A stretch of 43,955 bases of DNA from Pseudomonadota bacterium. Its GTDB lineage: Bacteria > Desulfobacterota > Anaeroferrophillalia > Anaeroferrophillales > Tharpellaceae. Below, one piece after another: positions 10,206 through 43,955 of this stretch. The translations under genes were made by a program, and so were the position numbers. The stretch is taken from the NCBI GenBank assembly GCA_015486505.1, contig WFRP01000313.1:1-43955 (forward strand), given 5' to 3'. The notes beneath the pieces were generated by a model. It made no database searches and was not told the origin of the DNA. It saw only the letters and a list, made by a program, of their open reading frames with translations. Within the stretch, counting starts at the first letter, position 1. The number at the start of each line of letters is the position of its first letter.

Positions 10206-10207
10206 GT

Positions 10208-10718
10208 GTAACTATTCAGCCAAATTTTACCCCCCCCCACCTTCTGGAGGGGGCGGGGGTGGTTTTTCGTAAGTGGTTGCGGAAACGATTTCGTTGTTTT
10301 TCGGAAGCGAGCGGGAGCCCATTAGTACCTTACAGGTTATTTTCTGCACCAAAAAACAAGATTTAATAATCAGAAAATGTTCTGATAAGAGTACTTATTT
10401 GCGGGTCGCAAGGCCCCGTTTGGGTTGCGGGATCTGTTCCCGCATTAGTGCCTTACAGGTTATTTTCTGTACCAAAAAACAAGATTTAACAGTCAGAAAA
10501 TGTTCTGATAAGAGTACTTATTTGCGACCATCGGATTGCCCCTGGGTGCGGGCTGAAAAGCCCTGTTTGGGTTGCGGGAGCTGTTCCCGCATCGGCATTG
10601 CAACTGTTTGAGCGTAGCGAGTTTTGCAAGGCGGGCGCAGCGAGCGTAAGGAAAAACAGAAATCTTAACGCCTGGCGGAGAAAAACCGCGCCCGACCCCG
10701 GATTCGGCTGAATAGTTA
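10208..10718 (+). mobile_element. T-family TIR element, long composite form (T1), carrying H-M array C internally
   Basis: Perfect 14-bp termini GTAACTATTCAGCC (10208-10221) and GGCTGAATAGTTAC (10705-10718). Left and right parts are collinear with the short copy at 16190-16367. The extra 325 bp (10314-10638) is bracketed by AGCGAGCG at 10306-10313 and 10639-10646. No clear TSD. Confidence 0.75.
10321..10594 (+). repeat. H-M repeat array C. Unit 1 is 10321-10443 (short M) and unit 2 is 10444-10590 (long M). Both have loop L1.
   Basis: ATTAGTACCTTACAGGTTATTTTC...GAAAATGTTCTGATAAGAGTACTTATTTGCG...GGGTTGCGGGAKCTGTTCCCGC occurs twice. The array ends in ATCG. Confidence 0.9.
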
Positions 10719-10807
10719 CTAAATAATTTTCAAAAAAAATCATTAAAGACATAAAAACAACCACTTATAACAATTCAGAAAAACTTTCTCACCCGGGAAC
10801 ACAAGCT

Positions 10808-11785: not shown

Positions 11786-11787
11786 TC

Positions 11788-12049
11788 TGATGCGGGAACA
11801 AGCCCCGCAACCCAATCGGGCATTTTCGGCCCGTACCCAGGGGCACTTCCTCTGATCGCAAATAAGTACTCTTATCAGAACATTTTCTGATTATTAAATC
11901 TTGTTTTTTGGTGCAGAAAATAACCTGTAAGGTACTGATGCGGGAATAATCCCCGCAACCCAATCGGGCCTTTTCGGCCCGCAAATAAGTGCTCTTATCA
12001 GAACATTTTCTTGTTTTTTCAAACCGAAAATAACCTGTAAGGTACTAAT
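11788..12049 (-). repeat. H-M repeat array D. Two units. Read on +: M(long)-H(L1)-M(short)-H(L4).
   Basis: It begins 2 nt after the cysE stop codon. Both unit junctions carry TGAT instead of TAAT, and both M modules carry the AACCCAATCGGG variant. Confidence 0.9.
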
Positions 12050-16189: not shown

Positions 16190-16367
16190 GTAACTATTCA
16201 GCCGAATCCGGGGTCGGGCGCGGTTCTTCTCCGCCAGGCGTTAAGATTTCTGTTTTTCCTTACGCTCGCTGGGAAAAACAACGAAATCGTTTCCGCAACC
16301 GCTTACGAAAAAACCACCCCCGCCCCCTCCAGAAGGTGGGGGGGGTAAAATTTGGCTGAATAGTTAC
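16190..16367 (-). mobile_element. T-family MITE (T2), 178 bp, with perfect 14-bp TIRs and a perfect 8-bp target-site duplication. Inserted between dctP and dctQ.
   Basis: GTAACTATTCAGCC (16190-16203) and GGCTGAATAGTTAC (16354-16367). AAAAATGG occurs at 16182-16189 and 16368-16375. Collinear with the two ends of T1, in inverse orientation. Confidence 0.88.
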
Positions 16368-16380
16368 AAAAATGGTTTTA

Positions 16381-18654: not shown

Positions 18655-20907
18655 TTGCCTGACTCCGCCTTCGATACCGAACAAAACCTTAAAGATCACG
18701 CCCGCAAAGATCGCAAAAAACGCCGTCGGGAAATAATTATCATTTCCATTCTGATAATTGTTATCAGCGGCCTTTTCTATATCGAGATAAATCTGCCCCA
18801 CCTGCCGACCGATATGCCGATTATGGGCAATGTCATCGTTTTCGCCCTGATCAACATAAATATCATCCTGCTGCTGCTGCTGATTTTTCTGATCCTGCGC
18901 AACCTGATAAAACTTCTCCTCGAAAGAAAACGCAGGATCGTCGGTTTTCGCCTGCGCACCAAACTGGTAGTCGCCTTCATTTCGCTCTCACTTTTCCCGA
19001 CAATTCTGCTTTTTGTGGCAGCTACCGGCTTTATCCGTTTCAGTCTTGACAACTGGTTTTCAACCAACTTTGAAGCTTCACTCGACGCCTCGATGACGGT
19101 GGCCCAGGAATACTACGACACCTTCCGGCAACAGAACCAGACCCTTGCTGAAGCACTCGCCAAAGAAATAACCCGGAAAGGATTGATGATCAGCACGCAG
19201 AAAGAGCTTCTGCAGAAACTTACCGAAACTAAACGGGCCGAATACTCTCTCGACGCAATCGCCGTCTTCCCGCGCCCCGGCCCGCCTCTGGCCTGCGCCT
19301 TAAGTTTAAGCCCGAACCTGAGTAAGGAAAATTTCCAGGCCGGCATCAACCAGGATGAGCACCTGGAAAAACTGTCGAAAATCGTCCCGCTGCCGGACGG
19401 CGCTACCATGATTCAGGGCTGGGCCCCGATCCTCTCGACCTGGCAGGAAAATAAAACCGTTGCCCTGGTCCTGGCCAGCAAACAGATTCCCGCAGGCCTG
19501 GCGCAGAAGATGCGGGACATCTCGGAGAAATATACGGCCTACAAAAAAGCCAAAAGCATGGAGCTCTACATCAAAAGTAACTATATCCTGACTTTTGTTC
19601 TGATTACGGCCCTGATTACTTTTATCTCGATCTGGTTCGGTTTCTTTCTGGCCAAGGATATCACGGCCCCGGTCCACGAACTTGCGCTGGCGACCCGGCA
19701 GATTGCCGACGGCAACCTTGATTTCACCATCGATATGGTCGCCAGCGACGAACTCGGCATTCTGGTCGACTCCTTCAACAGTATGACCGAAAACCTGCTT
19801 GAAAGCCGCCGGGAACGGGAACTCGCCCATCTCGAAATGAGCCGCATCAGCTCCGAGCATGAAAAGCGCCGGCATTACATCGAAACCATCCTGAAAAACA
19901 TTACGACCGGGGTTATCGCCCTGGACCGCACCGGCTGCATTACGACCATCAACCAGGCCGCTGAAAATATTTTTTCCTTCGCCGCCAACACGATTCAAGG
20001 GAAAAATTACCGGGAAGTTTTTCACCAGGAACTGATCCAGAAAATCCGCCAATACTTTAAGGAAAGCCAGAACGAGCCTGACAAGAAAAGAAATCTTGAG
20101 CTGACCCTGCCTGACCGCAACCGTTACGTTTCCATAAGTTTCAGCCCCTTTATCGACGAAACGGAAGCCTACATCGGCATGCTCATAATTATCAACGATA
20201 TGACCGAGCTCGTCAAAGCCCAGAAAACCGTAGCCTGGCGCGAAGTCGCCCGCAGGATTGCCCACGAAATCAAAAACCCGCTTACCCCGATCGCCCTGTC
20301 GGCGCAGCGCATCCAGCGCAAATACAGCGATTTGACCGAAGAAGGCGACCATGTTTTAAAGAATTGCACCACCACAATCGTCCGTCAGGTTAACGATCTG
20401 AAATCTCTGGTTAACGAATTTTCCAGTTTTGCCCGGATGCCCCAGGCCAAACCGACCCTGCAGGATCTAAACCTGCTCATCGACGAATCTCTGGTTCTCT
20501 ACCGCCAGGGACACCCCCGGGTTGAATTCACATTTGCACCCGACACCCGGATACCCAGATTTTACCTGGATCAGGAACAGATCAAACGGGTTATGACCAA
20601 TCTGGTTGACAACGCCCTGGCCGCATTGAAAAACGTGGATTCCGCCAAAGTCTGGATTGCCACCAGACTTGACAAAAGTCTGGAAATGGTTATTATCGAG
20701 CTCAACGACAACGGCCCGGGCATGGATGAAAGGACTCAGGCCCGCCTGTTCGAGCCTTACTTCTCCACCAAAAAAAGAGGTACCGGCTTAGGCCTGACCA
20801 TTGTTAAAACGATTATCAACGACCATCGCGGCTTTATCCGGGTCCGTGAAAATCACCTGAAAGGCACCTGCTTTGTTATTGAGCTGCCGATCATTGTCAG
20901 CATTTAG
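18655..20907 (+). CDS. ntrY: Sensor histidine kinase NtrY-like (4 TM, HAMP, PAS, HisKA, HATPase)
   Basis: H-box AHEIKNPLTPIALSAQRI, and ATP-lid motifs DNGPGM and GTGLGLTIVK. TTG start 3 nt after the upstream stop. The stop codon TAG (20905-20907) lies in the TTTAG start of repeat array E. Confidence 0.85.
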   Translation: MPDSAFDTEQNLKDHARKDRKKRRREIIIISILIIVISGLFYIEINLPHLPTDMPIMGNVIVFALININIILLLLLIFLILRNLIKLLLERKRRIVGFRLRTKLVVAFISLSLFPTILLFVAATGFIRFSLDNWFSTNFEASLDASMTVAQEYYDTFRQQNQTLAEALAKEITRKGLMISTQKELLQKLTETKRAEYSLDAIAVFPRPGPPLACALSLSPNLSKENFQAGINQDEHLEKLSKIVPLPDGATMIQGWAPILSTWQENKTVALVLASKQIPAGLAQKMRDISEKYTAYKKAKSMELYIKSNYILTFVLITALITFISIWFGFFLAKDITAPVHELALATRQIADGNLDFTIDMVASDELGILVDSFNSMTENLLESRRERELAHLEMSRISSEHEKRRHYIETILKNITTGVIALDRTGCITTINQAAENIFSFAANTIQGKNYREVFHQELIQKIRQYFKESQNEPDKKRNLELTLPDRNRYVSISFSPFIDETEAYIGMLIIINDMTELVKAQKTVAWREVARRIAHEIKNPLTPIALSAQRIQRKYSDLTEEGDHVLKNCTTTIVRQVNDLKSLVNEFSSFARMPQAKPTLQDLNLLIDESLVLYRQGHPRVEFTFAPDTRIPRFYLDQEQIKRVMTNLVDNALAALKNVDSAKVWIATRLDKSLEMVIIELNDNGPGMDERTQARLFEPYFSTKKRGTGLGLTIVKTIINDHRGFIRVRENHLKGTCFVIELPIIVSI

Positions 20908-21381
20908 TTCTGCACAAAAAAACAAGATTTAATAATCAGAAAATGTTCTGACAAGAGTACTTAGTCAACTTTATGACTTGATGTAAGTGGTAGTTTTTAC
21001 AGGTTTTGTTGTGTTTTTTTGCAAATGATTTCATCTTGTTACTCTTTGCGCCTTTGCGTCTTTGCGGGATAACTTCTTTTTGTCTCCCGCCAAGACGCAA
21101 AGACGCAAAGAAAAACCGCGGGCAAATGATTTTATCAATAAATATCAGTTGTTTAACCTAACTCAGAAAGTTGAGGTACTTATTTGCGACCATCGGAAGT
21201 ACCCTTGGGTGCGGGCCGAAAAGGCGCGATCGGGTTACGCAATTTGTTCCCGCATTAGTACCTTACAGGTTATTTTCTGCACAAAAAAACAAGATTTAAT
21301 ATCCAGAAAATGTTCTGATAAGAGTACTTATTTGCGGGCCGCAAGGCTTCGTTTGGGTTGCGGGATTTGTTCCCGCATTAG
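20905..21381 (+). repeat. H-M repeat array E. Two units; the first is decayed (5' H arm deleted, 3' hairpin degenerate) and interrupted by MITE-V. It fills the ntrY-ntrX spacer.
   Basis: TTTAG-TTCTGCAC… lacks 16 nt of the canonical ATTAGTACCTTACAGGTTATTTTCTGCAC. The unit resumes at 21176 (GTACTTATTTGCGACCATCGG…). A second, intact unit spans 21244-21376. The array ends in ATTAG, 10 nt before the ntrX ATG. Confidence 0.88.
20965..21174. mobile_element. MITE-V, a 210-bp TIR element nested inside an H-M unit
   Basis: Termini are TCAACTTTATGACTT… and …AACTCAGAAAGTTGA (8 nt perfect, about 13/15 overall). GTACTTA is duplicated at 20957-20963 and 21176-21182. It carries the REP-V palindrome at 21045-21110. 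Confidence 0.75.
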
Positions 21382-30307: not shown

Positions 30308-30433
30308 AATATTTTGCCTTAAGCTCAACTTCATAACTTAAGATAACACGTTGATTTACAAGCTAATTTTCATTTGATAGCAATAGCATTTTCATAATGC
30401 CTCCATAACTCGGCGAATATATTTCAAAATATC

Positions 30434-30572
30434 TAATGCGGGAACAATCCCCGCAACCTAATCGGGCCTTTTCGGCCCGCACCCAAGGGCACTTCCGTTG
30501 GGCGCAAATAAGTACTCTTATCAGAACATTTTCTTGTTTTTTCAAACCGAAAATAACCTGTAAGGTACTAAC
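30434..30572 (-). repeat. H-M repeat locus F, a single unit (long M, loop L4) between glcD and glcF
   Basis: TAAT-GCGGGAACAATCCCCGC-AACCTAATCGGGCCTTTTCGGCC-CGCACCCAAGGGCACTTCCGTTGGG-CGCAAATAA-H(L4)-TAAC. It ends 16 nt before the glcF ATG. Confidence 0.9.
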
Positions 30573-30588
30573 TCATAAAATTGACATA

Positions 30589-31824
30589 ATGACTCAATCA
30601 GAGCTCGCTCAAGAACTGAAAAAGTGTGTTAAATGCGGCGCCTGCATGGCGGTCTGCCCGATCTACCGCCAGACCGGGCGGGAGGAGATGGTCGCCCGGG
30701 GCAAACTTAATCTGATTGAAATAATCAGCCGCAATCAGGAACTGCCGGACGCCTGGATTGAAGCGGTGGATAACTGTCTGCTCTGCTGTTCCTGTGAAGA
30801 AAACTGCTCCAAAGGGGTTAAGATTACCGAAATTATCGCGGCGGCCCGCATCCGGCAGACGGCCGCCCAGGGCTTGAATCCCCTTAAAAAAGGAGCTTTC
30901 GCCCTGCTTAAAAACCGGATTTTATCAATCGCAAGATTTATCAAATTAGGCTCTCTGCTGCAGTGGCTTCTGTGGCGACGCCTGCCCCGGCACAGCGGCC
31001 TGATACGCCGTCTGCCCTTACCCGGAACCGATGAAAAAACGGTGATCCCGATTCTCCCCCGCCGCAACCTCGATGATATTTTAAAAAAACGCAAGCCTGA
31101 CCCCGATTTACCGCCGGTGCTTTTCTTTCCCGGCTGCGCCACCCGCTATCTCCAGCCGCAGATGGGCCTGGATCTTATCTATGTTCTTGAAAAACTCGGC
31201 TTTAACGCTGTCGTCCCAGCCGAATTTAAGTGCTGCGGTATGGTTACCTGGGGAGCTGGTGATGCGGTCAGTAATCTTAAACTTAAAGCATCAAATCTCA
31301 AGGTATTTGCCGCTAACGCCGCCATCAAAACCGTCGTCACCGGCTGCGCTTCCTGCGGCCACGCCCTGAAAGAGTATGATAACCTCCCGCCGGAATCTGA
31401 AATCCTTGATATCAGCGAATTTCTTTTCCGCCACCGGGAAAAACTTGAAAAGCTGCTTAAGGGCCGGCAAAGCCGAAAAAAAATCACCTATCACGACCCC
31501 TGCCACCTGCGTAAAGGCCAGGGCATCACTAAAGAACCGCGCTGGCTGCTTAAATTAATTGCCGGGGAAAACTTTGTCGAAATGAGTCATCCTGAACGCT
31601 GCTGCGGCGCCGGCGGGACTTTCGGCTTGACTCATAAAGAACTCTCCCGTAAAATTCTTAAGGAAAAAACCGACGCCGCCGATGCCACCGGGGCCGAGAT
31701 TGTTACAAGCGGCTGCCCGGGCTGTATTTTACAACTGACTGAAGGCGCCGTCGTCGCCGACAGTAAATGGCTAACTAAACATCCGCTCTCACTGCTTGCC
31801 GGACTCTTACGAAGCCGAAACTGA
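30589..31824 (+). CDS. glcF: (Fe-S)-binding oxidoreductase subunit, GlcF-like (two 4Fe-4S motifs plus two CCG domains)
   Basis: [12 protein letters not shown] and [11 protein letters not shown], with CCG motifs FKCCGM and ERCCGAGG. The start is moved to the ATG at 30589 because the track start at 30436 lies inside the repeat. Confidence 0.85.
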
Positions 31825-31855
31825 ATTTAATCAAAGCCGAAAAGGTTATTTCACC

Positions 31856-34800
31856 ATGGAAGATAAACAAAAATCAGCTCAGATTGCCGAGATTGAGGCT
31901 CAGATCAAAGATTTGCAGCAGCAGTTGTTCAGGGCTCAACATGGCGGCAGTACCGGCGGCTATCCTGAATTTTTACGGATCGAAAAAGAAAAAGACCGCC
32001 TGATTGAGATCCATGAGATCTCCCCCAACCCGGTCCTTATGTTCGCGGAAAACGGCCGGATCTATTACAGCAATCCCGCCGGACGTCGCTTTCTCGGGAT
32101 TGATGAGAATGAGCCTCTGGCAAAATTATCTTTCTTTCAGCTTTTTCCGCAAGAGGAAAGGGGAAATTTTGTCACTGAAATGATGCCGACGGCAGTTAAA
32201 AGCGGCCAATGGCAGGGGGAAATCAAGGTCCTGACTCCGTTTGCCGAACTTACCTGCCATTTGATTCTGATCGCCCATGCCAAAGACGATAAAGAGGATC
32301 AAGAGGATCAATTTTTTTCCGCGACCCTGCATGACCGCACCGCGATCCGTCGGGCCAACCATGCCATCAAAACTATCGTCGGCAATACTTTTACAGCTTC
32401 CGGCCAGGATTTTTTCGACAAACTCGTAAAGAATCTGCACTCCTGGCTTGATTGCGACACAGTCTGGGTCGGCAAAATCGAGAATCAACAACTTGAGATA
32501 CTCGCCCTGGAAAGCCGCCGGCAGCAGCAATCAAAAACCTTCAGTTACGATTTCGAGCACTGTCCCTTAAGCAAAAGCGACCGGAAAGATCTCTATTACT
32601 GCCCGGAAAACATTCAGAGCCACTTTCCGGGCAATCGGCTTTTTCGGGAACTAAACGGCTCCGGCTATGTCGGCATCGCCATCTACAACTCCGACCGGGA
32701 TTTAATCGGCAATATCTGCGCCCTGAAAACCGACCGCCTGACTCTGCCGACAAAAACCGAAGAGCTGCTGATTATCATGGCCGCCCAGGCTTCGGCGGAA
32801 ATCCGCCATCAGCAAAGTGAAAGCGCGCTGCGCCGGGCCTCGCAGGAAGCCGATGAAATCAACGAACAACTTGAGCTCGCAATTCAGCGAGCCAACAAGA
32901 TGACGCTTGACGCCGAACTGGCGGCGGCGGCAAAAAGTGAATTCCTGGCCAATATGAGCCATGAAATCCGCACCCCGATGAATGCCATTATCGGTTTTTC
33001 TTCGCTGCTGCTTGACAGTAAACTCGACCATGAACAACGGGATTATCTTGATATTATTATTAAAAACGGTGAAGGGCTGCTCCATATCATCAATGATATT
33101 CTCGACTATTCAAAGATTGAAGCCAATAAACTTGAACTCGAAGAGATCCCGTTCCAGGTTCGGGAAACAACCGATGACATCCTCGGCCTCCTGACCTTGA
33201 AAACCGCTGAAAAAGACCTTTTCTTTCACTGTATTGTCGATCACAGAATCCCGCAGTCCCTTCAGGGTGATCCGGTGCGTCTGCGCCAGATTCTCATCAA
33301 CCTTGCCAATAACGCGATTAAATTCACCAAACAAGGCGGCATAATTATCCGGGTCACTGTCGCCGAGGCGGAAAGCGAATATGTAAAACTCCTTTTTCGG
33401 GTTACCGATACCGGCATCGGGATTCCCGAAGATCGCATCAACTGTCTTTTTCAGTCTTTCTCCCAGGTTGATTCCTCAACCACCCGGGAATTCGGCGGCA
33501 CCGGCCTGGGGCTGGCGATCTCAAAACAGCTGGCGGAATTGATGGGGGGTGAAATCGGTATTGAGAGTCAACTGGGTAAAGGTTCAACCTTCTGGTTTAC
33601 GGTGCGGCTGCGCCGGGACCCGGCCGACAGTAACCCCCCGCAGGCGGAAATCTTTAAAAACTACCGTTTTCTCATTTTCACGCCACCGGAAAGAGAAAAC
33701 CCCGAGCCTAAATTGCAGCCCATCGGTGAGGTTGTCAAGGAACATCTGCTGTCGCTTGATTGCCGGCTTGATCAGGCCGACTCCTATCCTGAGCTCAATG
33801 AGCTTTTACTGGCGGCGCATCGGGAAAAGCAGCCTTATACAACCCTGCTCGCCGATCTCTCGGAACTTGCCAAACCCTGCGCCCTGCACAGCAATCTGCC
33901 GGACTTTCTCAAACCCGAATATTTGATTGCCCTGGCCCCGGCCCCGAAATTCGAAACTCCGGACAACTATAACGCCATCATCCCGGCCCCGATTAAAAGA
34001 GCCCTGTTTTACGAGCAAATGGGACGCTGTATGGGGCTGAAACTTGATGACGAACTGAGTGAAAAAGATGTGCAGCCGGGGCAGAAATTTCATGAAAAGC
34101 GGCAGCAGCTTAAAATTCTGCTGGTCGATGATAATCAGGTCAACATTAAAGTCGGCTCAAAAATGCTTGCCAAACTGGGCTTTACCTGTACTACGGCCGG
34201 CAACGGCATTGAAGCGTTGGCGGCCCTCGGCAGCAGTCATTACGATGTGGTTTTTATGGATATTCAGATGCCGGAGATGGACGGTTATGAAACCACCCGG
34301 CAGATTCGCAGCCAGTCCACCACCACAATCAACCCCAAAGTCATTATTATCGCAATGACGGCCCATGCCCTGAAAAGTGACCGTGACCGCTGCATCAATA
34401 TCGGTATGAACGATTTTCTCACCAAACCGGTACGTCTGGAAGAACTTAACGAAGTTTTAAGCCGGGCGATGAATCAGCTGGAAGACCGACTGTCACATAA
34501 TAATTCAAGCGTCCCTGAACTATTTGACGACGATGACAACGCTGATGAAAGCCTGGAGATGGACGATTTCTCAGGCGCTGAGGACGGCAGCGCCGAACAG
34601 GACACCGAACTTTTTAATAAAAAGTCCTTCCTGAGAAAACTCGATGACGATCTGGAACTCTACCGGGAACTGCTGGACGACTTTATTCAGGGCACTGATG
34701 ACTACCTGAAAGATATTGAAGACGGCGTAAAAGCAAACGATTTCGAAAAAATCAGAATTGCCGCCCATTCCATCAAAGGCTCGGCCGGCAGTATCGAAGC

Positions 34801-34957
34801 CGCGCAGATGCAGGCCGCCGCCTACGCCCTGGAAAAAGCCGCCAGGGAACAGGATAAAGCCCTGATCAAGCAAACCCGGGAAGATATGGAAATGGAATTT
34901 GCGATTTTAAGTGAAATCCTCAAAGACGAAATCGCCGATGCCGACAGTGACTTCTGA
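31856..34957 (+). CDS. Hybrid sensor kinase (coiled coil, PAS, GAF, HisKA, HATPase, degenerate receiver-like spacer, REC, Hpt)
   Basis: H-box [29 protein letters not shown] ([10 protein letters not shown]…[10 protein letters not shown]), an acidic linker, and Hpt HSIKGSAGS. The start is uncertain (ATG at 31856 or TTG at 31796). Confidence 0.88.
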
Positions 34958-34967
34958 AGCAGCGGCG

Positions 34968-35337
34968 ATTAGTACCTTACAGGTTATTTTCTGCACAAAA
35001 AAACAAGATTTAATATCCAGAAAATGTTCTGATAAGAGTACTTATTTGCGGGCCGCAAGGCTTCGTTTGGGTTGCGGGACTTGTTCCCGCATTAGTACCT
35101 TACAGGTTATTTCTTGTTCAAAAAAACAAGAAATGTTCTGATAAGAGTACTTATTTGCGGGCCGAAAAGGCTCGATTGGGTTGCGGGGATTGTTCCCGCA
35201 TTAGTACCTTACAGGTTATTTTCTTGTTTTTTTCGACAGCTTTTTTCAACTGTAAAAACAAGAAAATGTTCTGATAAGAGTACTTATTTGCGGGCCGCAA
35301 GGCCCTGTTTGGGTTGCGGGATCCGTTTCCGCATTAG
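34968..35337 (+). repeat. H-M repeat array G. Three complete units (34968-35090, 35091-35199, 35200-35332) plus a terminal ATTAG. Loops are L1, L5 and L3.
   Basis: Cleanest array in the window. It lies between convergent genes, starting 10 nt after the kinase stop and ending 3 nt before the waaA stop. Confidence 0.93.
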
Positions 35338-35340
35338 ATT

Positions 35341-36750
35341 CTAACGAAAAATCCCTTTTTCAATCAAAGCCTGCAGAGTGCGCTGAACCGCGCCCCGGTT
35401 GCGCTCAACCGTGGCCTGAGCTTTAAGGCCGGCACTTTGGATAAACTCCCGATCATTAAGACAACGACCCAGCAGAAGCGCAAGTTCTCGCCCATCGGCA
35501 ACCGGCAGACCGCCGCCCGCTTCATCAAGAAGTTCGAAACCGTCTTTAAAATTGGCCACATACGGACCATGAATTACGGCTTTGGCAAAGAGAGCCGCTT
35601 CCAGGGGGTTATGGCCGCCGATGCCGGGAACCAGAGTTCCGCCGATAATCGTAAAACCCGCTCGGCGATAAAAATGAATCAGATCGCCTAAGGTATCGAG
35701 CAGTAAAACGGCCGGAACTTTAACCGGCCCTGAAACCAAACTATCTTTAATTTCTGAAAAACGCAGATAATCAATTCCCCGGTCATCCAGCAGTTTCGCG
35801 ACCGCGGCAAAACGCTGCGGATGCCGCGGCGCCAGCACCAGAGACAGCGGTTTATTATTGTTATTATTACTGCCGTTATCAGCAATATTTTCATTCCAGG
35901 CGGAAAGTATCAGCTCTTCTTCACCAGGATGGGTCGACCCGGCGACCACTAATTGAATTTCCGGTCCCAATAATGTCCGAGGGCCGATTTTTAATTTCCG
36001 CTCCGGCGGCGGCAGCAGATCAAATTTAAGATTACCGCTGAAAATAATTTTCTCCACCGGGGTTCCGAGCCCGGCAAACCGGGCCGCCGAAACCCGGTCC
36101 TGCACCACCACAACATCCGGTACCCCGAACATCTTTTTAGTAAAGAAATTAAAAATCTGGTAGTTGACAAAACTTTTCCGCGAGAGCCGGGCGTTGACCA
36201 GGGCCAGCGGCAGCCGCCGGCGCCGGACACAATCAAACAGATTCGGCCAAAGCTCGGTTTCGGCAATAATCAGGGCGGCCGGCTGAAAATAACGAAAGAA
36301 AAGCGCCCAGCAACAGGGCAGATCCAGCGGCATCAGCACCACTTTTGCTTCCGGGAAAGCCTGCCGCGCCGTCTGCCGCCCGGTCAGAGTCATGGTAGTA
36401 AGCAAAAGGGCGGTTTCGGGATACTCCGCCTGCCGGGCCCGCAGCAGCGGGACCAGCATCCGCACTTCCCCCACGGAAGCCCCGTGAAACCAGAGCGAAG
36501 GACAAACTTCAGCCCCCCGCTCGGAATGTGGCACCGCCGGCCGCCGGAAAAACAGCCCCCGGAAACCGAAAAACCAGCCGTAAGTAACCAGCCGTTCACC
36601 CAGCCCTTCGAGATTTCCCTGCCGCCGATACAAATACCATAACAGCAGCGGCCAGAATAAAAAGAGTAGAATACTTAGAATAATATTGTAAACAATAAAC
36701 AAAACAGTTACCAATTTCCTGATATTTAACCGGTAAAACCGAGACGACAA
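35341..36750 (-). CDS. waaA: 3-deoxy-D-manno-octulosonic acid (Kdo) transferase
   Basis: N-terminal TM anchor and the WFHGASVGEV motif characteristic of KdtA/WaaA, with a GT-B fold C-terminus. The only in-frame start upstream of the TM is the TTG at 36750, so the start is uncertain. Confidence 0.85.
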   Translation of the reverse strand: MSSRFYRLNIRKLVTVLFIVYNIILSILLFLFWPLLLWYLYRRQGNLEGLGERLVTYGWFFGFRGLFFRRPAVPHSERGAEVCPSLWFHGASVGEVRMLVPLLRARQAEYPETALLLTTMTLTGRQTARQAFPEAKVVLMPLDLPCCWALFFRYFQPAALIIAETELWPNLFDCVRRRRLPLALVNARLSRKSFVNYQIFNFFTKKMFGVPDVVVVQDRVSAARFAGLGTPVEKIIFSGNLKFDLLPPPERKLKIGPRTLLGPEIQLVVAGSTHPGEEELILSAWNENIADNGSNNNNNKPLSLVLAPRHPQRFAAVAKLLDDRGIDYLRFSEIKDSLVSGPVKVPAVLLLDTLGDLIHFYRRAGFTIIGGTLVPGIGGHNPLEAALFAKAVIHGPYVANFKDGFELLDEAGGGLPVADGRELALLLGRCLNDREFIQSAGLKAQATVERNRGAVQRTLQALIEKGIFR

Positions 36751-38861: not shown

Positions 38862-39368
38862 ATGGAAATTGCAATTTTGACAACTCTCTGTCTGTTCGGC
38901 ATAATCGGCACGCTGGTGCCGGTTATGCCGGGTTGCGGCCTGATTTTTATCGGGGCTTTCGCTTACGCCCTGCTGACAAATTTTCAGATTATTTCCGGCC
39001 CGGAAGTCCTGGTCCTGCTCGGTTTGATGCTGGCCGGCTCAATCGGCCAGTTTTTCATCACCAGCCTCGGGGCCCGGGTTATGGGGGCGGGGAAATATGG
39101 GGTTGTCGGGGCTTTCTGCGGATTTTTTTTCGGCCTGATCTTTATTCCGGCTCCGGGCGGCTCTCTGATCGGTGCCTTTGCCGGGGCCTTCATCTGTGAG
39201 CTGACCTTTGCCGTTAAAAGTCAGCGGGAAAGCGTCAAGGCCGGAATCGGCGCGGTTATCGGCGCAATCTTCAGCCTCTTTTTTGAGTTTTTCATCGGCA
39301 TAATTATGATCGCCTACACCCTGTCAATCATCTGGCACAACCCAATCCCGCCGACTATCATTCTCTAA
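38862..39368 (+). CDS. Small integral membrane protein (DUF456-like)
   Basis: 168 aa with four Gly/Ala-rich TM segments. GGTGGTG lies upstream of the ATG. The stop codon TAA (39366-39368) is the TAAT junction of repeat locus H. Confidence 0.75.
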   Translation: MEIAILTTLCLFGIIGTLVPVMPGCGLIFIGAFAYALLTNFQIISGPEVLVLLGLMLAGSIGQFFITSLGARVMGAGKYGVVGAFCGFFFGLIFIPAPGGSLIGAFAGAFICELTFAVKSQRESVKAGIGAVIGAIFSLFFEFFIGIIMIAYTLSIIWHNPIPPTIIL

Positions 39369-39504
39369 TGCGGGAACAGCTCCCGCAACCCAAAAGAAAG
39401 TTTTCGGCCCGCACCCAAGGGCACTTCCGATGGTCGCAAATAAGTACTCTTATCAGAACATTTTCTTGTTTTTTCAAACCGAAAATAACCTGTAAGGTAC
39501 TAAT
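39366..39504 (-). repeat. H-M repeat locus H, a single unit (long M, loop L4)
   Basis: TAAT-GCGGGAACAGCTCCCGC-AACCCAAAAGAAAGTTTTCGGCC-CGCACCCAAGGGCACTTCCGATGGT-CGCAAATAA-H(L4)-TAAT. It shares the AAAAGAAAGTTTTC variant with unit 2 of array B. Confidence 0.9.
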
Positions 39505-39534: not shown

Positions 39535-39620
39535 CTCCCGCAAAGACGCAAAGGCGCCAAGAAAACCGAAAACGATCAACGTTACCTGAAACCCTTTGCG
39601 TCTTTGCGTCTTTGCGGGAG
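39535..39620. repeat. REP-V palindrome (arms TCCCGCAAAGACGCAAAG… / …CTTTGCGTCTTTGCGGGAG, about 40-nt loop)
   Basis: The same approximately 26-nt arm occurs as an inverted pair in the opposite arrangement at 21045-21110, inside MITE-V. Confidence 0.75.
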
Positions 39621-39659
39621 ACATTAAGATGAATAGTTAGAAATCTTACAACTTAAGGC

Positions 39660-43782: not shown

Positions 43783-43894
43783 GTAACTATTCAGCCAAAA
43801 TTTCCCCCCCCCACCTTCTGGAGGGGGCGGGGGTGGTTTTTCGTAAGCGGTTGCGGAAACGATTTCGTTGTTTTTCGGAAGCGAGCGGGAGCCC
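43783..43894 (+). mobile_element. T-family element, left part (T3), continuing into an H-M array and the window end
   Basis: GTAACTATTCAGCCAAAATTTCCCCCCCCCACCTTCTGGAGGGGGCGGGGGTGG…GAAGCGAGCGGGAGCCC is nearly identical to 10208-10320. Confidence 0.8.
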
Positions 43895-43955
43895 ATTAGT
43901 ACCTTACAGGTTATTTTCGGTTTGAAAAAACAAGAAAATGTTCTGATAAGAGTAC
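43895..43955 (+). repeat. H-M repeat locus I (an H hairpin with loop L4, truncated by the window end)
   Basis: ATTAGTACCTTACAGGTTATTTTC-GGTTTGAAAAAACAA-GAAAATGTTCTGATAAGAGTAC. Confidence 0.9.

Follow-up and report, generated by a model that had tools for sequence, protein, structure and literature searches.

The window, as we call the whole 43,955-nt stretch of DNA analyzed here, contains an array of repeats between the stop codons of a hybrid histidine kinase gene (31796-34957, + strand) and waaA (35341-36750, − strand). The waaA stop codon (CTA, 35341-35343) lies 3 nt past the array end. The three repeat units in this array (Table 1) belong to a dispersed family, 110-150 nt in unit length and without coding capacity. 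In order, a unit consists of (A)TTA, the 5′ arm of a long helix denoted H (GTACCTTACAGGTTATTTTC), a variable apex, the 3′ arm of H (GAAAATGTTCTG[A]TAAG[A]GTAC), a linker (TTATTTGC), an optional 25-nt hairpin block (GACCATCGGAAGTGCCCTTGGGTGC), a hairpin denoted P3 (GGGCC-GNRA or GAAAA-GGCCC), G(T/A)TTGGGTT, a second hairpin denoted P4 (GCGGGA-loop-TCCCGC), and ATTAG. The apex takes four discrete forms in the window units (14, 15, 28 and 38 nt). The genes of the window are ordinary chromosomal ones, including two-component systems, ABC and TRAP transporters, a glcD-like gene and waaA.

Table 1. Positions of repeat arrays, units and associated repeats (window coordinates unless a comparison locus is named).
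Feature	Position	Strand	Description
Array between kinase gene and waaA	34968-35337		Three head-to-tail units, 123 + 109 + 133 nt; intergenic
Unit 1	34968-35090	+	123 nt
Unit 1, duplicated core	34968-34971	+	ATTA
Unit 1, H 5′ arm	34972-34991
Unit 1, apex	34992-35019		Type A, 28 nt
Unit 1, H 3′ arm	35020-35041
Unit 1, linker	35042-35049		TTATTTGC
Unit 1, P3	35050-35063		GGGCC-GCAA-GGCTT, two G.T pairs
Unit 1, linker	35064-35073
Unit 1, P4	35074-35090
Unit 2	35091-35199	+	109 nt
Unit 2, P3	35159-35173		GGGCC-GAAAA-GGCTC
Unit 2, P4	35183-35199		GCGGGG...TCCCGC, G.T closing pair
Unit 3	35200-35337	+	133 nt plus terminal core ATTAG at 35333-35337
Unit 3, H 5′ arm	35204-35223
Unit 3, apex	35224-35261		Type D, 38 nt
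Unit 3, H 3′ arm	35262-35283
Unit 3, P3	35292-35305
Unit 3, P4	35316-35332		One G.T pair
Array	1-337	−	Two full units (55-188, 189-337); a third runs off the window start
Array	2097-2352	−	Two units; TAG stop of upstream gene inside left TTAG junction
Array	10321-10595	+	Two units, inside a copy of a different repeat with terminal inverted repeat GTAACTATTCAGCC
Array	11787-12049	−	Two units, antisense between serine acetyltransferase and GGDEF genes (both +)
Array 20908-21381, first unit	20908-20963, resuming 21176-21253	+	5′-truncated unit
Array 20908-21381, second unit	21254-21376	+	One full unit
Array	30433-30572	−	Single unit, antisense between FAD-oxidase and CCG/Fer4 genes; empty site in relative
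Array	39365-39504	−	Single unit at DUF456 stop codon; empty site in relative is TGAT
Array	43895-43955	+	Unit runs off the window end, inside second host-repeat copy
Second repeat family	10206-10720
Second repeat family	16190-16372	−
Second repeat family	43786-43955
Second repeat family	L012, 15742-16011

The original prediction described this region as built of hairpin-bearing units, and the hairpins themselves were found as described. H pairs GTACCTTACAGGTTATTTTC with GAAAATGTTCTG[A]TAAG[A]GTAC over 20 base pairs, with two single-A bulges and a central G.T/T.T/T.G; of 30 distinct units, representing at least 8 organisms, 29 carry it. P3 was found at the two positions predicted in units 1 and 3, as were P4 with its variable loop, the 25-nt insert folding as GUGCC-CUUG-GGUGC (variants at 21198-21211 and about 11833-11846) and the GTGC at the base of H in two copies (129-184 and 11989-12045). 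Three variant hairpins are real but lie 3-9 nt from where they had been placed (10403-10416 for 10406-10419, 21336-21349 for 21329-21342 and 35183-35199 for 35174-35190). The C-G to G-C flip predicted at 2124-2138 did not hold, as GGGGC-ACAA-AGCCC pairs only with a register shift or a bulge. Wobble-to-Watson-Crick changes in the 25-nt insert are present but uninformative, because any transition at a G.U leaves a standard pair.

The units fold far better than shuffled sequence (z of −3.4 to −6.7 as DNA, similar as RNA). As single-stranded DNA the two strands of the three units fold equally well (−19.5 vs −21.3, −22.6 vs −20.5 and −28.7 vs −28.0 kcal/mol). Folded as RNA and summed over 14 units, the top strand reaches −623 vs −585 kcal/mol for the bottom strand, a gain of 2-3 (about 2.7) kcal per unit that comes from G.U pairs.

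Approximately 17 units are located at 10 intergenic sites of the window, on both strands (array orientations along the 44 kb: − − + − + + − + − +). Units within any one array are all co-oriented. Their orientation relative to flanking transcription is mixed: antisense, sense, or between convergent genes. In three arrays a stop codon is part of the core (2348-2350, 20905-20907 and 39366-39368), with TAG or TAA lying inside TTAG/CTAA. The order of apex types repeats between arrays (1-337, 2097-2352, 34968-35332), being A, B, D in two of them and A, D in another; blocks of several units may occasionally move as one, or newer copies may insert between older ones. The sign of the GC skew follows gene orientation in the window (positive with − strand genes at 1-8 kb, negative with + strand genes), and it is unusable here for assigning replication direction.

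The closest syntenic relative that we found (L012, GCA_054005715.1; WaaA 83% identical, same gene order) is without units at three array positions of the window, a comparison with one relative species, and no unit was found at an orthologous position in it. In the spacer between the kinase gene and waaA, 18 nt long in L012, the empty sequence GGCA ATTA AATCC corresponds to GGCG ATTA[three units]ATTA GATTC in the window. At the DUF456 stop codon, the empty ATC TGAT AGCAAACA corresponds to the filled CTC TAAT[unit]TAAT AGCAAACA, so that the TGA of the relative is replaced by a TAA lying in a copy of the core. At the third site, the empty CATC TAAC TCATAAAATTGAC corresponds to TATC TAAT[unit]TAAC TCATAAAATTGAC.

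Flanking sequences were compared for 20 arrays, drawn from 11 sources. Immediately left of GTACC stands TTA, its three letters found in 20, 17 and 18 of these arrays, respectively, and the next base out varies (T 10, A 8, G 2). Right of CCCGC, the bases A, T, T, A and G are each found in 17-19 of 20. A copy of TTA or TTAG stands on either side in 17-20 of 20 arrays and a single one in empty sites, as in a short target-site duplication. Based on these flanks, the shared core is TTA or TTAG and the element spans (G)TACC... to ...CCCGCA. The core is non-palindromic and its reverse complement was used as target in none of the 20 arrays, indicating that insertion is orientation-specific. The boundaries set by the empty sites (GTACCTTACAGG... 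and ...TTCCCGCA) share no terminal inverted repeat. In two copies of an unrelated host repeat, one internal site (GAGCCC ATTA/GTACC, the slash marking the junction) is occupied by units that differ in apex type, which argues for a strong site preference; the host-repeat copy in the relative is empty at that site. The units thus probably represent a mobile element that inserts at a TTA(G) core. The original prediction lacked what we regard as the main fact about them, that they arose by recent insertion of a mobile repeat.

The host repeat is itself a second repeat family with terminal inverted repeats (GTAACTATTCAGCC...GGCTGAATAGTTAC), about 180-260 bp long without inserts. It contains a C9/G-rich terminator-like hairpin followed by TTTTT, and the copy at 16190-16372 is without the central ~75 nt.

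An ordinary miniature inverted-repeat element, moved as double-stranded DNA by a DDE transposase, would explain TTA as the target duplication, the arms of H as 20-22 bp imperfect terminal inverted repeats and the bulges as indels. TTA indeed stands on both sides of H in almost every unit (TTA/GTAC...GTAC/TTA), the inner apex is variable and the arms are conserved as in inverted-repeat elements, and both DNA strands fold equally well. However, truncated copies aside, H and the 55-80 nt 3′ part of the unit were always found together, and the empty sites are without the whole H-plus-3′ unit. The true unit ends (GTACC... and ...CCCGCA) have no inverted repeat in common, and insertion is orientation-specific at a non-palindromic target. 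We consider such an element unlikely.

How the arrays grew can be read from the similarity among units. Every window unit has its nearest relative at another locus (89-99% identity), whereas neighbors in an array are 66-83% identical. Unit 1 matches the unit at 21254-21376 at 99% identity and its own array neighbors at 71-81%, the closest relative of unit 2 is at 11940-12049 (92%), and that of unit 3 is at 2097-2230 (95%). Local tandem duplication or slippage is ruled out by these identities, as neighbors are the least similar. The arrays were instead built by successive insertion into the TTAG flanking a resident copy. An extragenic mosaic repeat of REP/BIME type, maintained by the host, would grow by slippage or unequal crossing-over and have a role at the DNA level, such as protein binding or supercoiling. 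The units do resemble such repeats: they are numerous, lie outside genes and form mosaics in which inverted motifs alternate, separated by alternative linkers, formally like BIME-2 Y-s-Z-l arrays. But with array neighbors the least similar (66-83%), local duplication is excluded, the insertion junctions are clean and matched by empty sites, a single arm of H is not palindromic, and there is no GTAG-hairpin REP unit. A host-maintained repeat of this kind is very improbable.

The prediction that the helices are kept by compensatory changes was weakly borne out: genuine compensation occurs in a few places, and covariation overall barely exceeds that of shuffled alignments. We counted pairs at 31 paired positions in a covariance-model alignment of 23 non-overlapping units and compared these with 500 shuffles. 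Standard pairs fill 92.1% of cells vs 91.6% in shuffles (19/500 shuffles reach the observed value), 4 of 31 pairs are changed on both sides vs 2.1 expected (38/500), and the covariation score is 0.092 vs 0.084 (22/500). By the covariation tool's own calibration, comparable values arise in 5-25% of unstructured related sequences, so the support from covariation is weak. About 35 copies were available in all, with 23-30 related ones for the covariation test, and in 10 loci the 3′ arm of H is fixed by the search pattern. The covariance-model search lost neighboring units because they share the 5-nt ATTAG, and the modules were therefore parsed by anchors. In H, 11 of 20 pairs never vary. The changes that do occur include pair 3:20 of H (A-T in 22 units, G-C in 2, G.T in 3, A.C in 3) and one A-T to G-C change at pair 6 of P4.

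Two further changes, like A-T to G-C at pair 3:20, maintain the palindrome of H. Unit 2 has a matched 1-nt deletion in each arm (ATTTCTTGTT / AACAAGAAAT), and at comparison locus L019 the inner 3′ arm has become an exact complement of the 5′ arm. Quasi-palindromes are subject to template-switch mutagenesis, and on that account we infer that both changes may reflect palindrome correction at the DNA level.

Pairing mostly on one strand, as originally predicted, was not borne out at variable positions. We counted wobble-type cells at these positions, with a choice of register that treats G.T and A.C alike; G.T cells are canonical on the top strand and A.C cells on the bottom strand. The result was 35 G.T vs 30 A.C cells. 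Canonical cells are similarly balanced between top and bottom strands in P3 (128 vs 131) and P4 (152 vs 148). The top strand scores higher only via the invariant G.T and T.G at the center of H. With variable sites balanced and the H triplet invariant, the one-strand claim rests on fixed features of the family and not on substitutions.

If the units served as a functional structured RNA, whether as a multi-copy small RNA or in cis at the ends of mRNAs, the top-strand fold would be under selection. Consistent with this, the top strand is better by 2-3 kcal per unit as RNA, the G.T/T.T/T.G triplet and two wobbles in the insert pair on the top strand only, the peripheral hairpins vary in length as in many structured RNAs, and P3 followed by UGUUUGGGUU is weakly terminator-like. 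The evidence against it is broader. Covariation barely exceeds shuffles, and at variable sites G.T cells are about as frequent as A.C cells (35 vs 30). Orientation relative to flanking transcription is mixed, with the units at 11787-12049 and 30433-30572 lying antisense between co-directional genes. There are no orthologous copies between relatives, the top strand of the array is without a promoter-like site, and no Rfam family matches: the whole window gave 0 matches at gathering score, and the array at E ≤ 5 gave only noise of the microRNA-precursor hairpin type (14-22 bits vs cut-offs of 39-245). The hairpins are real, and nothing shows a dedicated structured RNA; we regard one as quite unlikely. 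The units are surely transcribed within neighboring mRNAs, and any effect of their hairpins on RNA ends may be a side effect common to such repeats. The broader proposal of a folded RNA or single-stranded DNA thus stands in its hairpin-built units and in its likeness to substrates of single-stranded DNA recombinases, and is not supported as to significant covariation or strand-specific pairing at variable sites. The recombinase likeness is still live; the insertions are site- and orientation-specific without terminal inverted repeats.

On balance we favor reading the array as independently inserted, non-coding mobile units that are probably integrated at a TTAG core by a hairpin-recognizing enzyme encoded in trans. 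The particular route, hairpin-directed integration by core exchange, is more tentative. An enzyme encoded in trans would recognize the conserved asymmetric hairpin or hairpins, and an excised or circular copy, possibly single-stranded, would integrate by exchange at the TTAG core. Every insertion would leave a regenerated TTAG on either side, which is proposed to make the termini of resident copies preferred targets and to yield head-to-tail arrays of mixed units. Enzymes of the HUH (IS200/IS605 or RAYT), IS110 or tyrosine-recombinase type are candidates. Core exchange by an enzyme of these types is favored over double-strand cut-and-paste by the asymmetry of H, whose two A bulges and 3x3 mismatch are invariant across species, together with the free apex, the lack of terminal inverted repeats and the orientation-specific 3-4 nt core. 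A role at the RNA level (weak terminator, mRNA-end hairpin) would be a secondary one. Neither the window nor the called genes of L012-L029 yielded a transposase or recombinase gene, so we purely infer both the enzyme and the intermediate. Among about 0.3 Mb of loci, no autonomous copy was found in which an open reading frame parts H from the 3′ part. A staggered cut with ordinary target duplication would account for the TTA(G) repeat equally well. It is improbable, though worth stating, that the units represent an undescribed integration system, in which a trans-acting recombinase would recognize a long hairpin with two bulges at the 5′ edge, possibly with a unit-derived RNA, and carry out strand exchange at a self-regenerated TTAG core, with self-targeting mixed head-to-tail arrays and with stop codons at gene ends as natural landing sites.

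The family has its closest likeness in palindrome-associated IS200/IS605 derivatives and RAYT-mobilized REP/REPIN elements. Like these, the units have no coding capacity and no terminal inverted repeats, carry conserved imperfect bulged hairpins at or near both ends, and are extragenic, with high copy number and expansion in one lineage. They also insert beside a fixed 3-4 nt sequence in fixed orientation, with TTA/GTACC at the left end and CCCGCA TTAG at the right end across the 20 arrays. Several features differ. In IS200/IS605 the left and right sub-terminal hairpins are similar and are bound by the same transposase dimer; the H of the unit (AT-rich, 20 bp, bulged) and its P4 (GCGGGA/TCCCGC, 6 bp) are unrelated in sequence. 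IS200/IS605 and RAYT hairpins are about 10 bp long and lie some nucleotides from the cleavage site, whereas the stem of H is 20 bp long, bears a 14-38 nt apex and begins at the boundary itself. The units form heterogeneous head-to-tail arrays, and no Y1 transposase was found in the loci. Single-stranded DNA transposons typically show a strong lagging-strand bias, and the units have no obvious replication-strand bias within 44 kb; the presence of both orientations argues against a strict one. Together, the unlike end hairpins, the position of H at the boundary and the two orientations within 44 kb argue against a classical IS200/IS605 relationship.

The units also resemble the BIME of E. coli, pneumococcal BOX, enterobacterial ERIC and Correia elements of Neisseria in being short, intergenic, self-complementary mosaics of alternative modules, often co-transcribed with neighboring genes and sometimes tandem. 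They have no sequence similarity to any of these. Unlike Correia and ERIC, their boundaries are without inverted repeats, and unlike BIME-type arrays, theirs consist of dissimilar units inserted serially and not of identical modules repeated. REP/BIME sequences have a palindromic unit of 20-40 nt with a conserved 5′ tetranucleotide (GTAG type) in arrays of alternating orientation; the present unit is 110-150 nt long, its arrays are co-oriented and its H arm is not self-complementary. As in integron attC sites, the palindrome is imperfect, one of its arms has conserved extrahelical bases, and its terminal loop varies. We rejected attC, as inspection found no RYYYAAC / GTTRRRY core sites in H on either strand and there is no cassette context: the units are dispersed over many intergenic sites and not gathered in one cassette array, with a spacing of 55-80 nt and no cassettes or ORFs between sites, and there is no integrase in the window. 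The formal likeness to single-stranded DNA recombination substrates that was originally proposed therefore remains live in general but not for attC, which lacks both its core sites and its cassettes here. In its workings the family resembles REP/REPIN, palindrome-associated IS200/IS605 derivatives, BIME or BOX, but it departs from each of these in one or more defining features.

An exact search for the 3′ arm of H, using one genome per species, returned at least 10 loci in at least 7 metagenome-assembled genomes, from genomes labelled Deltaproteobacteria or Thermodesulfobacteriota. The junction pattern was found in 4 metagenome contigs. Including loci fetched via protein homologues, the number of distinct full units is 30. 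Across at least 8 metagenome-assembled genomes, H hardly changes, bulges and mismatch triplet included, while the apex ranges from 14 to 38 nt. Density differs between relatives: the 44-kb window has at least 16 units, 21 kb of L012 has 2 (at other places than those of the window), 21 kb of a 69% relative (L015) has none, and ten relative loci covering about 90 kb (L020-L029) have only one unit fragment, at the L021 contig end. The family is thus widespread but sparse, and expanded in the genome of the window, that of an uncultured bacterium of sulfate-reducer type. Full-text literature searches with core 12-13-mers returned unrelated primers only, no match was found in viral contigs or plasmid records, and a metagenome scan with the WaaA protein returned nothing. 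With no sequence match in Rfam, viral contigs, plasmid records or the literature searched, the best reading of the sequence is that of a new non-autonomous mobile repeat family. H-like 20-mers in L017/L018 and inside a histidine kinase gene (20848-20867) were judged to be chance or unrelated.

Other assemblies of the same organism (L013, L014) are 100% identical to the window, and L011 differs only in the last ~50 nt, where its contig ends in repeats, probably owing to repeat collapse in assembly. No usable strain polymorphism was obtained from these three. The contigs of L011, L013 and L014 all end in units, indicating that the repeat fragments short-read assemblies of the lineage. By estimate (17 units x about 125 nt in 44 kb), the family makes up ~5% of the window. 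As the units lie at gene ends, and three times at or in a stop codon, the repeat shapes operon spacing.

The points of note are the growth of arrays by self-targeting and the unusual 5′ hairpin, not a new class of structured RNA; for annotation, conserved hairpins alone are insufficient to call such repeats structured RNAs. The arrays provide a clean natural case in which unlike copies without terminal inverted repeats are stacked head to tail, in one orientation, at a 4-nt core. The enzyme, if found, could add a hairpin-recognizing recombinase with a short, simple target.

A foreign insertion of ~212 nt (20964-21175) splits the truncated unit after GAGTACTTA, with a direct repeat of GTACTTA on both sides, ends GTCAACTTT... 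and ...AAAGTTGAG, and GCAAAGACGCAAAG-type repeats around a GCGGGA/TCCCGC hairpin. A similar block lies at about 39540-39640. From its sequence, the insertion looks like a third small mobile element. A sub-family of units carries an extra hairpin module of ~66-85 nt (AAGTGYTTCAC...GATGAARAAACTTAT...) at L016 3670-3776, L018 7176-7403 and L021 1-75 (− strand). This module interrupts the 3′ arm of H where the mismatch triplet borders on the stem, with GAAAATGTT on one side and CTGATAAG on the other, and its presence in three different metagenomes indicates that it propagates as part of the unit.
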